Source: Kayfunavirus MT1B1P3. From it: DNA of 40,159 bases. Below are positions 3,953 to 16,985 of this stretch, piece by piece; positions within the stretch are counted from its first letter, which is position 1, and every line of letters starts with the position of its first letter. The position numbers and the translations under genes were made by a program. Under the pieces are notes generated by a model. It had not been told where the DNA came from. It worked only from the letters and a program-made list of their open reading frames with translations, and searched no databases. The DNA lies in sequence record OZ035815.1, one strand, 5' to 3'.

Positions 3953-3982
3953 TTGACAAGAAGTATATAATTAAAGTATTAT
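3953..3982 (+). promoter_or_regulatory. candidate host sigma70 early promoter (A2-like)
   Basis: TTGACA -35, 18-bp spacer, TATTAT -10. Confidence 0.4.
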
Positions 3983-4537: not shown

Positions 4538-4610
4538 GAGTGATTAACTACAGGTCGTTAGACTTATAGCGGCCTGACTGATAGTCACTAACAACTGAGA
4601 GGATATAACT

Positions 4611-5141
4611 ATGGAACGTAACGCTAACGCATACTATGAGCTGCTGGCTGCAACCGTTGAGCTGTTCAATGAGCGTATTCAGTGCGACGAAATAGCTGAA
4701 GGCGATGACTACAGTGATGCGCTGCATGAGGTCGTAGACGGTAATGTTCCGCATTATTACCACGAGATTTACACGGTGATGGCTGCTGATGGTATTGACA
4801 ATGAGTTCGAAGACTCTGGGCTGATGCCTGAGACCAAGGACGTAACGCGTATACTACAAGCTCGCATCTATGAGGCACTGTATAACGATGTGTCTAATAG
4901 CTCTGAGGTGGTCTGGTTTGAGGCTGAAGAGGAAGACGAAAAGGCTGAAGAGGAGGACGAAAAGGCTGAATATTGGGTAGTTGACACTAGAACAGGCGAG
5001 ATAATTGAGGCAGCTGTATCACTTTGCGAGGCTATTGCATGTGCAAAAGAACTCTATGAGGAAGGTTTTCACATGCAGGTCGAAGACATCAACGATAACG
5101 TAGTGTTCGATCCTGAGGCTGCTGAGGAGGACTGCGAGTGA
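4611..5141 (+). CDS. 0.3: Ocr-like DNA-mimic anti-restriction protein with C-terminal extension (T7 gp0.3-like)
   Basis: strong recalled similarity to T7 Ocr (VPHYY..I..VMA..GID.EFEDSGLMP.TKDV.RILQARIYE); 176 aa versus about 117 in T7; very acidic; SD gagagga upstream. Confidence 0.85.
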   Translation: MERNANAYYELLAATVELFNERIQCDEIAEGDDYSDALHEVVDGNVPHYYHEIYTVMAADGIDNEFEDSGLMPETKDVTRILQARIYEALYNDVSNSSEVVWFEAEEEDEKAEEEDEKAEYWVVDTRTGEIIEAAVSLCEAIACAKELYEEGFHMQVEDINDNVVFDPEAAEEDCE

Positions 5142-6398: not shown

Positions 6399-6419
6399 TT
6401 AACTATCACTTTAGGACTA
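6399..6419 (+). promoter_or_regulatory. degenerate phage-promoter-like sequence upstream of gene 1
   Basis: ttaactatcactttaggac: matches the consensus except A to T at -3; function uncertain. Confidence 0.2.
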
Positions 6420-6488
6420 AAGGTCTAAGACTACAAGTGAAAGACCAAAGAGACTCTAAGTGAAAGACTAATAACAAGGACTTTAAGT

Positions 6489-9170
6489 ATGAGCGTCATC
6501 TCTATTGATAAACACGACTTCTCTGATGTGTCGAACGCCATTGAGCCGTTTAACCTGCTGGCTGACCACTACGGGAAGGACCTTGCAGTCAAGCAGCTTC
6601 AGCTTGAGCATGAGGCATACACTGAAGGCGAGCGACGTTTCATCAAAAACCTTGAGCGACAGACTGAGCGCGGGGAACTGGCAGACAATCAGGTCGCCAA
6701 GCCTTTGATGCAGACTCTGGTTCCTAAGATTGCGCAAGCCGTCAGGGAGTGGTATGAAGGTCCAGACGGGAAGCTTTCAACCTCTCGTCCTAGCGTAGCG
6801 TTCACCATGTTAAGCACCGAAGAGAAGGCCGTCAAGGACCGCTCTCTGCGTATCCCTTGCGAGTCTGCTGCGGTCATCATACTGAAGGTCATACTCTCCA
6901 AGCTGGTAAAGCCTGAAGGGATACCGATTACACCGATGGCCTCCGCGATAGGTCGCACACTTGAGGACGAAATCCGCTTCGGTCGCATCCGTGACAAAGA
7001 GAAAGAGCACTTCAAGAAGGCGATAGCTGATAACCTGAATAAGCGGGCCGGGGCGTCCTACAAGAAAGCCTACATGCAAGCGGTCGAGACATCCATGCTG
7101 GAGCAAGGCCAACTGGAAGATGCGTGGGGAACTTGGAGTCCTACAGAGGCTGTCCACGTTGGCATCAAGATGCTTGAGATTGTCATCCAGTCAACACAAC
7201 TGGTCGAGCTTAAGCGGTACGGTGCTGGCAATGCAGCGGCTGACGTAGAGATGGTCCACCTGTCAGACTTCTGGGTCAAGAAGATGGCACAACGAGGATT
7301 CAGCCTTGCGGGTATAGCTCCAGTCTACCAGCCTTGCGTCGTTCCACCTAAGCCGTGGACTGGTGTCGTAGGTGGTGGGTACTGGGCCAAAGGTCGCAGA
7401 CCGCTACCCCTGATTCGCTTAGGGTCTAAATCAGCGGTGGCACGTTATGAAGACGTATACATGCCTGAAGTCTATGACGCTGTGAATATCATCCAGAATA
7501 CACCTTGGAAAGTGAACAAGAAGGTACTGGACGTGGTGAACATGGTCGAGAAGTTGAACAACACGCCTATTGATGACATCCCTCAGATGGAGCCACTGAA
7601 GCCTGAAGACTATGCGGGTGAGACTGAGGAGGAACTCAAGGCATGGAAGAAGGCTGCTGCTGGTATCTATCGCCGCGAGAAGGCCCGACAGTCGCGAAGA
7701 TTGTCACTGAGCTTTATCGTTAACCAAGCGAACAAGTTCTCTCAGTTCAAGGCCATCTGGTTCCCGTACAACATGGACTGGCGTGGGCGCGTCTACGCTG
7801 TTCCGATGTTCAACCCTCAGGGTAACGACATGCAGAAAGGTCTCCTTACTCTGGCAGTCGGTAAGCCTATTGGTGCTGACGGTTTCAAATGGCTGAAGGT
7901 CCATGGTGCAAACTGCGCGGGTGTTGATAAAGTCACCTTCGAGGAGCGCATCAAGTGGGTGGAAGACAACCACGACAACATTATGGCTGCTGCTAAGGCA
8001 CCGATGGATAGCATTGAGTGGTGGGGCAAGTTAGACTCTCCGTTCTGCTTCCTTGCGTTCTGCTTCGAGTATGCTGGTGTAATGCACCACGGATTGTCTT
8101 ACTCCTGCTCATTACCGATAGCGTTCGATGGGTCATGCTCAGGGATTCAGCACTTTAGCGCGATGCTTCGTGATCACATAGGTGGACATGCAGTAAACCT
8201 AACGCCTTCCGGTAAGGTCCAAGACATCTACCGAATCGTGTCCGACCGCATTGAGGAAGAGCTTAAAGTCCTGCTGGTTAACGGCACAGACAACGAGATG
8301 GTAACTCACGAGGACAAGAAAACTGGTGAGATTACCGAACGCCTCAAGCTGGGGACACGAGAGCTGGCCCGGCAGTGGCTGACTTACGGCATGTCACGCA
8401 AGGTCACTAAGCGTTCAGTAATGACTCTGGCCTATGGGTCGAAAGAGTACGGCTTCGCAGACCAAGTTTATGAGGACATCGTGATGCCGGCGATTGACTC
8501 AGGGTCTGGCGCTATGTTCACCGAACCAAGCCAAGCGTCCCGCTTCATGGCTAAGATGATTTGGGAAGCTGTGAGCGTGACCGTAGTTGCTGCGGTTGAC
8601 GCGATGAAGTGGCTTCAGGGTGCTGCCAAGCTGCTGGCTGCTGAAGTGAAGGACAAGAAGACTGGAGAAATACTGAAGCCTTGCCTTCCGGTACACTGGG
8701 TAACACCTGATGGTTTCCCGGTCTGGCAGGAATACCGCAAGAAGGATACCACTCGTCTGAATCTGATGTTCTTAGGGTCATTCAACCTTCAGCCTACGGT
8801 CAACAAAGGCACGAAGAAAGAGCTGGACAAGCACAAGCAGGAGTCAGGCATTAGCCCGAACTTCGTCCACTCACAAGATGGTAGCCACCTACGCAAGACT
8901 GTAGTCCACACGCACCGCAAGTATGGCGTGATGTCCTTCGCAGTGATTCACGATAGCTTCGGGACCATCCCGGCTGACGCTGAGTATCTGTTCCGTGGCG
9001 TCCGTGAGACGATGGTCGAGACCTACCGCGATAACGATGTGCTGCTTGACTTCTACGAGCAGTTTGAATACCAGCTTCACGAGAGCCAGCGCGACAAGTT
9101 GCCTGAGCTTCCGAAGAAAGGTAAACTGAATATCGAAGACATCTTGTCTTCAGACTTTGCATTCGCGTAA
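6489..9170 (+). CDS. 1: DNA-directed RNA polymerase, single-subunit (T7 gp1-like)
   Basis: 893-aa ORF; conserved T7 RNAP blocks recognised (TLAYGSKEYGF, PNFVHSQDGSHLRKTVV, VIHDSFGT, final FAFA); size matches T7 RNAP (883 aa). Confidence 0.97.
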   Translation: MSVISIDKHDFSDVSNAIEPFNLLADHYGKDLAVKQLQLEHEAYTEGERRFIKNLERQTERGELADNQVAKPLMQTLVPKIAQAVREWYEGPDGKLSTSRPSVAFTMLSTEEKAVKDRSLRIPCESAAVIILKVILSKLVKPEGIPITPMASAIGRTLEDEIRFGRIRDKEKEHFKKAIADNLNKRAGASYKKAYMQAVETSMLEQGQLEDAWGTWSPTEAVHVGIKMLEIVIQSTQLVELKRYGAGNAAADVEMVHLSDFWVKKMAQRGFSLAGIAPVYQPCVVPPKPWTGVVGGGYWAKGRRPLPLIRLGSKSAVARYEDVYMPEVYDAVNIIQNTPWKVNKKVLDVVNMVEKLNNTPIDDIPQMEPLKPEDYAGETEEELKAWKKAAAGIYRREKARQSRRLSLSFIVNQANKFSQFKAIWFPYNMDWRGRVYAVPMFNPQGNDMQKGLLTLAVGKPIGADGFKWLKVHGANCAGVDKVTFEERIKWVEDNHDNIMAAAKAPMDSIEWWGKLDSPFCFLAFCFEYAGVMHHGLSYSCSLPIAFDGSCSGIQHFSAMLRDHIGGHAVNLTPSGKVQDIYRIVSDRIEEELKVLLVNGTDNEMVTHEDKKTGEITERLKLGTRELARQWLTYGMSRKVTKRSVMTLAYGSKEYGFADQVYEDIVMPAIDSGSGAMFTEPSQASRFMAKMIWEAVSVTVVAAVDAMKWLQGAAKLLAAEVKDKKTGEILKPCLPVHWVTPDGFPVWQEYRKKDTTRLNLMFLGSFNLQPTVNKGTKKELDKHKQESGISPNFVHSQDGSHLRKTVVHTHRKYGVMSFAVIHDSFGTIPADAEYLFRGVRETMVETYRDNDVLLDFYEQFEYQLHESQRDKLPELPKKGKLNIEDILSSDFAFA

Positions 9171-9185
9171 CAGCAGGAGAAGTAT

Positions 9186-9416
9186 ATGTCAATGAAACTT
9201 GTAGCACACAACAAGGCATTCAACGATGGGTCGGGGCGTTGCCATGTAGAGCTTACTTATAAGGATTTAGTCATTCTCCGAGACAGACTACAAGCTGGTG
9301 TGACTGGGTGGATTCAACCTAACGAGTACAACCTTATAGCTTCGATTGATGAAGTGCTTAACGCGTGGATGGAAGACGAGCGCACTCAGTATCCGTCATT
9401 CCCTAGAATTAGATAA
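9186..9416 (+). CDS. hypothetical protein (76 aa)
   Basis: ORF with SD (gcaggag) directly after gene 1; no homolog recognised; T7 has no gene here. Confidence 0.45.
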   Translation: MSMKLVAHNKAFNDGSGRCHVELTYKDLVILRDRLQAGVTGWIQPNEYNLIASIDEVLNAWMEDERTQYPSFPRIR

Positions 9417-9428
9417 GGAGAGAGAGCT

Positions 9429-9644
9429 ATGAAATTTGCACACAAGCATACTGGCGTTAATGGTGGGACTCAAATCGTGACCGTAACAGAACACAATGGC
9501 GCGGGTCTGGTGAAGACCACGGTCATCCCGACCAAGATGTCCAAGCAGCTTAACATCCCGTTCAAGACTCTTGTAGATCTGGTCGAGTCCAGCCACGAGA
9601 AGTACCTGAAGGACGCAGTGTCCAAGCTGGAGCAGGCCAAATGA
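9429..9644 (+). CDS. hypothetical protein (71 aa)
   Basis: ORF with SD (aaggagagag) upstream; no homolog recognised. Confidence 0.45.
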   Translation: MKFAHKHTGVNGGTQIVTVTEHNGAGLVKTTVIPTKMSKQLNIPFKTLVDLVESSHEKYLKDAVSKLEQAK

Positions 9645-9720
9645 CAGACCTACAGTCACTGGCCTTGTGGCTAGGAGCACTCGCAGTATTCACTTTAATC
9701 CAACGCAGAAGAGGTTAACC

Positions 9721-9740
9721 CTAAACTATCACTATAGGAT
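9721..9740 (+). promoter_or_regulatory. phage RNAP promoter (phi1.1-like)
   Basis: ctaaactatcactataggat matches consensus. Confidence 0.65.
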
Positions 9741-9785
9741 TAGACTCAAGGTCATGACTCAAAGTCGTGGCCTTCATGATTAACC
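9741..9785 (+). promoter_or_regulatory. putative RNase III site (R1.1-like)
   Basis: tagactcaaggtcat...gtggccttcatgattaacc; resembles T7 R1.1 (aaggtcaatgagtggcctttatgattgacctt) from memory. Confidence 0.4.
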
Positions 9786-9815
9786 TTAAATAAACACTAC
9801 TGGAGATTTAACCAC

Positions 9816-9995
9816 ATGTATCAGAACACTATCAACTTCGAGCGCATTCGTGAACGTCAGCAGACTGAAGACTACATCCCGAATGGACGCAAGCTGAACA
9901 AGACCAAGCGTGGTGGTGGTGTCAAAGGCGCTTTCCGTAATGCTGAAGGTAAAGACTCTCTGGTCAACCAAGAGAAATACTTCGTAGGAGCATAA
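9816..9995 (+). CDS. 1.1: small basic protein gp1.1-like
   Basis: 59-aa hand-translated ORF containing GRKLNKTKR, as recalled for T7 gp1.1; below ORF-track cutoff. Confidence 0.55.
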   Translation: MYQNTINFERIRERQQTEDYIPNGRKLNKTKRGGGVKGAFRNAEGKDSLVNQEKYFVGA

Positions 9996-9999
9996 CCAA

Positions 10000-10263
10000 A
10001 TGGGCCGACTTTATAGTGGCAACCTCAACGCTTTCAGAGCAGCGTGTAACAGGCTCTACCAGTTAGACTTCGCTGTTATATCTCAGGAGTTTCAAGACCA
10101 TGTGTCACGCCAAGAGTGCATGAGACTCAGGGTGGAGGACCGAGCTGGTAACATCTTCGCGCTTGAGACCTTCACACACTACGATGAAGACGTGCTGTAT
10201 AATACTGCAACCAACTACCTCAACGGTCTCGCTGACCATATCGACACATGGAGCAAAGCATAA
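10000..10263 (+). CDS. 1.2: inhibitor of host dGTP triphosphohydrolase (T7 gp1.2-like)
   Basis: N-terminus MGRLYSGNLNAFRAA...RLRVEDRAGN matches recalled T7 gp1.2 (MGRLYSGNLAAFKAA...RLRIEDRSGN). Confidence 0.8.
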   Translation: MGRLYSGNLNAFRAACNRLYQLDFAVISQEFQDHVSRQECMRLRVEDRAGNIFALETFTHYDEDVLYNTATNYLNGLADHIDTWSKA

Positions 10264-11339
10264 TGACAACTATTAAAACCAACCCGCACCGCGCTGTAGA
10301 TTACTCTGAGTCTGGCGTTAAGAAGGCACTGGAAGCAGCCGGGTCTCTGGAAGCTGAAGTGAAGTACGACGGTGTGCGACTGAATCTCCCGGTCCTGCGT
10401 GAAGGTGAGACCTACTGGTTGAGCCGTGAGTCTAAACCTCTTCCAGCCTTGGAGTGGATGAACTCTGAGTTAGGGAATGCGTGGACACAAGCTGACTGGC
10501 GATGGTTCCTGCGTCAAGCTGGCTACGAAGGTGTGGGCATGATGATTGATGGCGAGGTCATGGTCAAAGGTGTAGACTTCAACACCTCCTCAGGTCTCAT
10601 CCGCACGAAGTGGCTGAAGCCTAACAACGAGGAGTTCGCTGAATGCTATCCGTGGCGTGGTAAGAAGGTCCCGTTCTGGGCAGCCCGGTCAAGACTTCAG
10701 GTTGTGGTATACGGTGTCGTAGACATGACAACCATTGCTGACCCGAAAGCCGAAGGTCCTATCCATAGCGTCACACGCCTGAAGGCTGAAGCTATCGTCC
10801 CTCTCCTCCAGAAATACTTCCCGGAAATCGACTGGGTTCTGTCTGAGTCACACACGGTCTATGACCTTGAGTCGCTCAACTCCCTGTACGAAGAGAAGCG
10901 TCTGGAAGGACATGAGGGTCTGGTAGTCAAAGACCCGCTGGGTAAGTGGAAGCGTGGCAAGAAGTCAGGCATGTGGAAAATGAAGCCTGAGGATACCATC
11001 GACGGGACCGTATGCGGACTCGTGTGGGGGACTCCGGGTAAGGCTAACGAAGGTAAGGTCATCGGCTTCGAGGTTCTGCTGGAGGACGGAATGGTAGTTA
11101 ATGCTTGTGGTCTGACTGAAGAACAGAAGAACGAGTTCACAGCTAACGTCGCTGAATCTAGTGGTTATACCTTGGCTGGTGGCCATGTGGTTATTCAGGA
11201 TGGGACCGAGAAGATCAACCCATACGAAGGCTGGCAGTGCGAAGTCCTCTTCATGGAGCGGTTCCCAGATGGTTCCCTTCGTCACCCTAGCTTCAAGTGC
11301 TGGCGCGGAACGGAAGATAACCCAACTGTTAAGAGTTAA
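10248..11339 (+). CDS. 1.3: ATP-dependent DNA ligase (T7 gp1.3-like)
   Basis: 363 aa; adenylation motif KYDGVR near N-terminus; size and position match T7 ligase. Confidence 0.95.
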   Translation: MEQSIMTTIKTNPHRAVDYSESGVKKALEAAGSLEAEVKYDGVRLNLPVLREGETYWLSRESKPLPALEWMNSELGNAWTQADWRWFLRQAGYEGVGMMIDGEVMVKGVDFNTSSGLIRTKWLKPNNEEFAECYPWRGKKVPFWAARSRLQVVVYGVVDMTTIADPKAEGPIHSVTRLKAEAIVPLLQKYFPEIDWVLSESHTVYDLESLNSLYEEKRLEGHEGLVVKDPLGKWKRGKKSGMWKMKPEDTIDGTVCGLVWGTPGKANEGKVIGFEVLLEDGMVVNACGLTEEQKNEFTANVAESSGYTLAGGHVVIQDGTEKINPYEGWQCEVLFMERFPDGSLRHPSFKCWRGTEDNPTVKS

Positions 11340-11349
11340 CTAAATTTCA

Positions 11350-11388
11350 ACCCAGTGGTCTTAGCGGACTGCTGGGTTTCTTTGCTTT
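11350..11388 (+). terminator. rho-independent terminator after ligase (TE-like, for host RNAP)
   Basis: hairpin acccagtggtc / gactgctgggt (11-bp stem with 2 G-U pairs, 6-nt loop) followed by tttctttgctttg. Confidence 0.55.
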
Positions 11389-16940: not shown

Positions 16941-16985
16941 TCTAGACTCAAGGTCATTCACAGCGAGTGGCCTTTATGATTAGAC
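16941..16985 (+). promoter_or_regulatory. putative RNase III site upstream of DNA polymerase
   Basis: tctagactcaaggtcat...agtggcctttatgattagac, third copy of the conserved motif. Confidence 0.4.

Follow-up and report, generated by a model that had tools for sequence, protein, structure and literature searches.

Three small genes between gene 1 and the phi1.1 promoter of Kayfunavirus MT1B1P3: a constant pair and an optional cassette

In bacteriophage T7, the start site of promoter phi1.1A lies 26 nucleotides (nt) past the stop codon of the RNA polymerase gene (gene 1) and is followed, in order, by the RNase III site R1.1, promoter phi1.1B, an AT-rich block of about 75 nt and gene 1.1. According to what Saito et al. 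reportedly found in 1980, the primary replication origin of T7 includes AT-rich non-coding DNA, some 60 bp long or longer, on the downstream side of the promoter. In T3, a coding gene (1.05) stands between gene 1 and a single phi1.1-R1.1 unit, and only about 28 nt separate R1.1 from gene 1.1. Here we describe the corresponding interval of Kayfunavirus MT1B1P3 (sequence record OZ035815.1). The whole stretch analysed, 40,159 nt, is called the window; coordinates are counted from its first letter, and all window features given below are on the plus strand. An earlier reading made from the letters alone (the sequence-only reading) had found two open reading frames (ORFs) in this interval, which it contrasted with the non-coding interval of T7; given gene 1.05 at the same place in T3, coding DNA there is not unusual.

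The interval contains three genuine coding genes rather than two, named here ORF A, ORF B and micro-ORF C, and their synteny is conserved. ORF A (76 amino acids (aa), ATG start) occupies 9186-9416 and begins 15 nt past the gene 1 stop (9170), with AGGAG 6 nt upstream of its start. ORF B (71 aa, ATG start) occupies 9429-9644 and begins 12 nt past the A stop, with AAGGAG 8 nt upstream of its start. The sequence-only reading had placed these two ORFs at exactly these positions, 9186-9644, and was also right about their good ribosome-binding sites. It overlooked the third gene, C (25 aa, MTDLQSLALWLGALAVFTLIQRRRG), at 9641-9718, whose ATG overlaps the TGA of B (ATGA). B and C form a constant Kayfunavirus module, while A is an optional cassette that is always found in the same slot after gene 1. 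A 751-nt query over the interval matches the record of Escherichia phage Mt1B1_P3 (MT496969.1; Autographiviridae, Studiervirinae, Kayfunavirus) at 100%, and about 40 LM33_P1/EcoDS1-like phages at 91-96% identity. In MT496969.1, A and B are annotated coding sequences, each a 'hypothetical protein' (QNJ49167.1, QNJ49166.1). The two ORFs had been called unrecognised, which is correct for their function and incorrect for the ORFs themselves, since they are annotated in many records.

ORF A matches phrog_28104, a PHROG family without assigned function, from end to end (E-value 1e-54). Its ratio of non-synonymous to synonymous substitution rates (dN/dS) against close relatives is 0.05-0.17. It is present in 39 phage records and in 9 protein clusters, and is absent from K1F. 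When 1.84 billion representatives were scanned exhaustively with HMMER, only four more relatives emerged, at 34-50% identity, and the JGI metagenomes yielded as further relatives only two near-identical loci. All three contigs retrieved for the distant relatives carry A directly after gene 1, with B next where the contig continues. The junctions are those of a clean cassette with its own Shine-Dalgarno spacer, and each gene of the block keeps its own. In one locus (L008), an A protein only 50% identical lies beside a gene 1 end that is 98% identical. The AlphaFold2 (AF2) model of A, with a predicted local distance difference test score (pLDDT) of 71.8, has a beta-hairpin and two helices.

ORF B matches phrog_8082, likewise a PHROG family without assigned function, from end to end (E-value 3e-40). 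It was found in 219 phage records at 42-100% identity, nearly all of them from Kayfunavirus-like phages of enterobacteria, and it lies 12-18 nt after gene 1 in every inspected case (K1F, CR44b, KE05, SAKp10309, GA2A, IMM-002 and 21 IMG/VR contigs). No B homologue was found in 185,579 bacterial and archaeal species genomes; both A and B are restricted to T7-like phages. Against close relatives, the dN/dS of B is 0.33-0.50. Across about 30 loci the median is 0.07 for the N-terminal half of B and 0.25 for its C-terminal half; for comparison, the 3' end of gene 1 has a value of 0.07 and gene 1.1 one of 0.06. Positive selection on B was not seen in pairwise Nei-Gojobori comparisons. Against distant relatives, the synonymous sites of A and B are saturated, while length and reading frame are intact. 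Both ORFs are therefore conserved across related phages, under purifying selection and in kept synteny.

No other segment of the neighbourhood diverges as much as B. The mean pairwise nucleotide identity is 0.75 for ORF B and 0.84 for micro-ORF C, as against 0.91 for the last 300 nt of gene 1, 0.93 for the promoter and hairpin downstream and 0.91 for gene 1.1. Two loci match the window at 90-97% identity in gene 1, C and gene 1.1, whereas their B matches it at only 52-53% in nucleotides and 44% in protein sequence. The region thus behaves like a mosaic accessory hot spot. The AF2 model of B (pLDDT 93.5, predicted template modelling score 0.76) is built of an antiparallel sheet of three strands, one short helix and, at the C-terminus, a long one. 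All 27 alleles examined are basic, with isoelectric points (pI) of 9.3-10.3; the N-terminal sheet is conserved and the C-terminal helices are variable. B would then be a soluble basic alpha/beta protein, and the conserved sheet is its likely binding face.

Micro-ORF C was found by reading, in the +1 frame, the roughly 75 nt that follow the B stop, a stretch that seemed too well conserved for a spacer. It is present in 32 of the 32 complete loci examined, and the 4-nt overlap with B is always kept, as ATGA or, in two divergent loci, as GTGA. Among 28 distinct nucleotide versions of C, 60% of the codon differences are synonymous compared with 23% expected, a proportion reached in none of 2000 simulations; the substitution counts are not phylogenetically independent, and the pattern is clear nonetheless. 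Leucine is encoded by CTN codons in some versions and by TTR codons in others, and one and the same stop position is filled by TAA, TAG or TGA. C is thus a coding gene. By tblastn it is present in at least 155 phage records. It is annotated in few of them, for example GA2A (gp10) and IMM-002, and it is unannotated in MT496969.1. No PHROG or Pfam family was matched by C. The 3' third of the gene (TTAATCCAACGCAGAAGAGGTTAA) is almost invariant, synonymous sites included.

The C product consists of a hydrophobic helix and a basic tail ending in QRRRG. The hydrophobic core comprises about 17 residues, its 15-residue Kyte-Doolittle mean reaches 2.2, and the RRR tail follows the core. C is therefore predicted to be a single-pass peptide of the inner membrane, and the RRR tail suggests that its C-terminus would lie inside the cell. 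In its 25-aa size class, its hydrophobic helix and its basic C-terminal tail, C resembles small single-pass membrane peptides such as type I toxins and the regulators AcrZ and MgtS. It has no sequence relationship to any of these and, unlike them, is a sense-strand gene whose translation is probably coupled to that of the gene upstream of it in the early operon of a lytic phage. A 38-aa ORF with a GTG start at 9667-9783, which is annotated in some records (for example MZ234009.1; L034 866-982), is probably spurious because it crosses the 3' end of C, the promoter and the R1.1 hairpin.

A second optional cassette is known from relatives of the phage. A gene of about 155-165 aa resembling T3 1.05 (PF25755) lies between C and the phi1.1 promoter in EcoDS1, KE05, SAKp10309 and the contig L009, and is absent from the window. 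In the loci of our set its coordinates are 2122-2592 (L001), 1480-1953 (L005), 1481-1939 (L007) and 4560-5054 (L009). The invariant AGAAGAGG at the end of C is the Shine-Dalgarno sequence of this optional gene. In K1F-like phages, the interval after gene 1 is therefore made up of a constant pair, B and C, and two optional cassettes, A and the T3-1.05-like gene.

The surroundings of these genes follow the early region of T7. A strong sigma-70-type promoter, TTGACA-18-TATTAT, with 11 of 12 consensus positions, is present at 3953-3982. It is a candidate early promoter and, by analogy with the early promoters of T7, would drive transcription by the host RNA polymerase across gene 1 (6489-9170, a T7-type single-subunit RNA polymerase of 893 aa) and the small ORFs. 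Downstream of the interval are a gene 1.1 homologue of 59 aa (9816-9995, PF08200), a gene 1.2 homologue of the dGTPase inhibitor family (10000-10263, PF10922), gene 1.3 for an ATP-dependent DNA ligase (10248-11339) and, after the ligase gene, an intrinsic terminator-like hairpin with a T-run (11349-11378) at the position of TE, where the early unit of T7 and T3 ends. The order of gene 1.1, gene 1.2, the ligase gene and the TE-like terminator is that of T7. A, B and C are located inside this predicted early unit, from the promoter at 3953-3982 to the terminator at 11349-11378, which is the equivalent of T7 class I and whose borders are consensus predictions.

Nothing in the scans would separate the small ORFs from gene 1. 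They detected no terminator-like site from 8800 up to the ligase gene, no phage promoter between 6401 and 9724 (core scan, plus strand) and no R1.1-type hairpin between gene 1 and A-B-C (motif scan). Rfam gave no match in 8800-10300. The suggestion that the ORFs are early genes transcribed with gene 1 agrees with this predicted layout. In addition, a phage-promoter-like core with one mismatch (AACTATCACTTTAGG) is present upstream of gene 1 at 6401-6415, followed by an AT-rich non-coding leader of about 73 nt, the two together spanning 6401-6488. T7 differs in having no phage promoter just upstream of gene 1. The 6401 site could let the phage RNA polymerase transcribe gene 1 and ORFs A-C. A similar site, CACTTTAGG, also precedes gene 1 in L009, a divergent contig. 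Set against the customary layout of T7-like genomes, the window itself is circularly permuted; its sigma-70 region is near 3.9 kb and is preceded by about 3.5 kb of sequence that normally forms the right end.

Downstream of C, a phage RNA polymerase promoter at 9720-9742 contains the exact consensus core AACTATCACTATAGG at 9724-9738 and aligns with T7 phi1.1A and T3 phi1.1. On the plus strand of the window there are 12 such promoter cores, compared with 0.8 expected by chance. The promoter is directly followed by a perfect 12-bp hairpin, AAGGTCAT...GTGGCCTT, at 9748-9774 (-16.1 kcal/mol, z -4.4), with the conserved flanks ACTC... and ...CATGATTAACC. This hairpin is the homologue of R1.1 of T7 and T3, and so a candidate RNase III site. 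The promoter and hairpin together correspond in sequence and position to the T7 phi1.1A-R1.1 unit (ACTCAAGGTCAT...GTGGCCTT.ATGATT.ACC), and the columns AAGGTC...GTGGCCT...TGATT.AC are invariant in an alignment of the window, T7, T3, K1F and L009. The single promoter and the RNase III-like site noted downstream of the two ORFs in the sequence-only reading are therefore well founded. The AAGGTCAT...GTGGCCTT motif occurs three times in the window, compared with 0.06 expected, a recurrence in keeping with a family of RNase III sites. The two other R1.1-type hairpins, at 305-331 and 16950-16974, are presumably also RNase III processing sites.

Since this promoter-hairpin unit is homologous to that of T7 and T3, the ORFs have been inserted between gene 1 and the unit and have not replaced it. 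The 9720-9815 unit has the position of the T7 origin, between gene 1 and gene 1.1, and the ORFs at 9186-9718 lie upstream of it. It had been proposed that they occupy the region of the T7 primary origin; this is correct for the interval from gene 1 to gene 1.1 and incorrect for the origin elements. In contrast to T7, the window has 545 nt of coding DNA (A, B and C) between the gene 1 stop and the promoter, and it lacks both phi1.1B and the AT-rich segment of about 75 nt downstream of R1.1. No second tandem promoter corresponding to phi1.1B was found: the match at 9724 is the only one between 6401 and 11429 (exclusive), even with 3 mismatches allowed, and the phi1.1B segment is absent in the alignment. 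The window shares with T3 a coding gene ahead of a single phi1.1-R1.1 unit. However, the annotated T3 origin follows an extra promoter, phi1.05, right behind gene 1, and no phi1.05-type promoter is present in the window. Many Kayfunaviruses (EcoDS1, KE05, L009) share with T3 the 1.05-like gene that the window lacks.

The only AT-rich DNA downstream of the 9720 promoter is a short leader at 9775-9815 that holds the ribosome-binding site of gene 1.1. Its GC fraction is about 0.32-0.33 (60-70-nt windows starting at 9772-9780). The hairpin is separated from the gene 1.1 ATG by only 41 nt, and downstream of the promoter there is no AT-rich non-coding DNA as long as about 60 bp. AT-rich DNA of similar extent follows the promoters at 6401, 9724, 20864 and 24705, and that at 9724 is not more extreme than the others. 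An origin of the T7 type requires only a phage promoter and easily melted DNA. The site at 6401 is as good an origin candidate as the 9724 promoter. T7 origins depend on a phage promoter, and when the primary origin is deleted, other promoters can stand in as secondary origins (PMC8373140). In our reading A, B and C are not part of a replication origin, and any origin used at this locus would rely on the single phi1.1 promoter downstream of them. On sequence grounds, any of these promoters may be the one used, and the earlier suggestion of a differently organised origin is a possible one. The textbook layout of the T7 origin, with two promoters and an AT-rich block, is thus not conserved even within Studiervirinae.

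No function could be assigned to A, B or C by sequence, profile and fold searches. Pfam, NCBIfam, PADLOC, PHROG annotation and PDB sequence profiles gave no function for A or B, and a Foldseek search of B against the viral models of BFVD returned only its own family and uncharacterised proteins. The homology and structure searches suggested for the two ORFs have therefore pointed to no known family or informative fold. A and B share an M..K(L/F).AH start followed by a glycine-rich turn and a beta strand; the possibility that they are tandem paralogues was rejected (hhalign probability 0.4%). The identification of B with T7 gp1.1 or T3 gp1.05, or of A with T3 gp1.05, was likewise rejected (hhalign probabilities of at most 0.2%, 0.1% for A and B against T3 gp1.05, and no Pfam match). 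The gp1.1 family PF08200 is matched by the ORF at 9816-9995 and not by A or B. In view of this and of the null hhalign results, the labels 'gp1.1' and '1.05' that some annotators gave B in GenBank are positional only and do not reflect homology. B also bears some likeness to LptE. The identity is only 4-12%, and B lacks the signal peptide, the lipobox, the extra strand(s) and the length of LptE. This likeness goes no further than a common fold and gives no evidence of homology or shared function.

That A, B and C are real, early and accessory genes is very likely. As to what they do, the explanation that we favour, and consider probable, is that they are translated from the mRNA of gene 1 as early accessory proteins, with the host as their probable target. 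A, B and C are closely packed, with spacers of 15 nt and 12 nt and a 4-nt overlap, and they extend the gene 1 cistron at its 3' end. The host RNA polymerase would transcribe them early together with gene 1, and the phage RNA polymerase would probably do so too, from 6401. Gene 1, A, B and C would be carried on one mRNA that is processed by RNase III and ends at the R1.1 homologue, and translation of the three may be coupled, given the short spacers and the overlap. The products may be small non-enzymatic proteins that bind host components, either in take-over or in counter-defence. Such a mechanism is suggested by the class I position of the genes, their small size, their restriction to phages, the cassette behaviour and the divergence of B. 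Most other small class I proteins of T7 (0.3, 0.4, 0.6, 1.2) are small non-enzymatic host-directed binders. A-C are like the class I proteins of the T7 group (Ocr/0.3, 0.4, 0.6, 1.1, 1.2) in being small, encoded between the early promoters and TE, and variable among relatives, but they have no sequence or fold relationship to any of them. No sequence match or informative fold links the ORFs to known anti-defence or defence-related families. Of the earlier proposal of accessory or anti-defence functions, the accessory part is borne out by the presence or absence of A and the divergence of B, while the anti-defence part is guilt by association. A host-directed or anti-defence role for A, B and C, taken as a claim of its own, is a tentative one with rather less than an even chance.

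Several observations weigh against the explanation favoured here. B and C are kept throughout the genus under purifying selection with no positive selection, which would fit a housekeeping role inside the phage at least equally well. The conserved positive charge of B could mean binding to nucleic acid rather than to a host protein. These ORFs were not included in the accessory-gene screen set of Silas et al. Finally, no functional, expression or origin-mapping data on these genes or on Kayfunavirus were found in the literature, so that the early timing and the translation of A, B and C are inferred.

The first two of these observations lead to the idea that B, possibly with C, is a basic nucleic-acid-binding factor that serves the phage itself. 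It could act on phage DNA or RNA or on the adjacent RNA polymerase and take part, for instance, in transcription, in RNA processing or in the initiation of replication near phi1.1. Every Kayfunavirus-like locus examined has B and C beside gene 1, and in addition to the basic pI of all 27 alleles the beta-sheet of B is strongly constrained (dN/dS 0.07). However, when B is compared with AP2/integrase-type DNA-binding domains, which have three strands plus a helix, the AP2 matches are weak and come behind generic alpha/beta folds in the ranking, and B has no sequence relationship to DNA- or RNA-binding families. Moreover, T7 and T3 lack a homologue and yet run the same transcription and replication programme, which places the function of B outside the core machinery, and the fact that B is the most divergent segment of the region also speaks against this role. 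We consider this role unlikely, with perhaps one chance in a handful. It is less likely still that C is the effector, a membrane peptide acting in host shut-off, superinfection exclusion or inhibition of a membrane protein, with B as its chaperone, neutraliser or targeting partner. The invariance of the 4-nt start/stop overlap of B and C, GTGA variants included, would agree with this, as would the make-up of C, a 17-residue hydrophobic core followed by the QRRRG tail, and the purifying selection on the gene. Against it, the chaperone-like matches are generic, and the alleles of B and C reassort freely: one C allele is found with B alleles only 44% identical, and both types of C allele are found with the 71-aa B. 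This free reassortment argues against a tight pairwise co-adaptation. The most improbable of the alternatives is that what is conserved here is a cis-acting DNA element, for example a displaced primary origin, on which the ORFs lie by accident. The 3' third of C, nearly invariant even at synonymous sites, and the location of the T7/T3 primary origin in the same general interval might be taken in its favour, but this alternative is contradicted by the strong coding signatures in all three ORFs. In A and B the DNA varies far more than that on either side, while length and fold are preserved in the proteins. No phage promoter lies between gene 1 and 9720, and 9186-9718 holds no AT-rich non-coding stretch. 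In addition, the 3' end of C doubles as the Shine-Dalgarno sequence and spacer of the 1.05-like gene and as sequence upstream of the promoter, which is enough to explain its conservation.

A more speculative variant, which we regard as a long shot, is that B and C form an undescribed two-part early module acting at the membrane, in which the 25-aa peptide is coupled to the basic beta-sheet protein, with A as an interchangeable host-specific add-on. If true, the module might neutralise a membrane-associated defence or abortive-infection effector, or it might tether phage nucleic acid or replication to the membrane.

In large part the finding is an ordinary one: catalogues already listed A and B as hypothetical proteins, and T3 provides an earlier example of a coding gene at this place. 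Its main value lies in annotation and in the choice of experimental targets. Kayfunaviruses are widely used as therapeutic candidates and as gut-model phages. Small, early, phage-restricted and unusually divergent genes such as these are reasonable candidates for screens of host take-over or counter-defence.

Some of the records compared here have peculiarities of their own. In the K1F reference (L004, NC_007456.1, locus about 1592-1780), the gene 1.1 homologue contains an extra T (CAGACTTGAAGG, compared with CAGACTGAAGAC in the window) that leads to an early in-frame TGA. Genes 1.1 and 1.2 are unannotated in NC_007456.1, and the extra T may be a sequencing error or a real frameshift. Apparent oddities of annotation or metadata were also seen in the relatives' records PV615262.1, OR594182.1 and OR594184.1. 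Among the records of close relatives, one is labelled 'Acinetobacter phage', and pipeline labels are shifted in places, for example 'nucleotide kinase' over ORF A.

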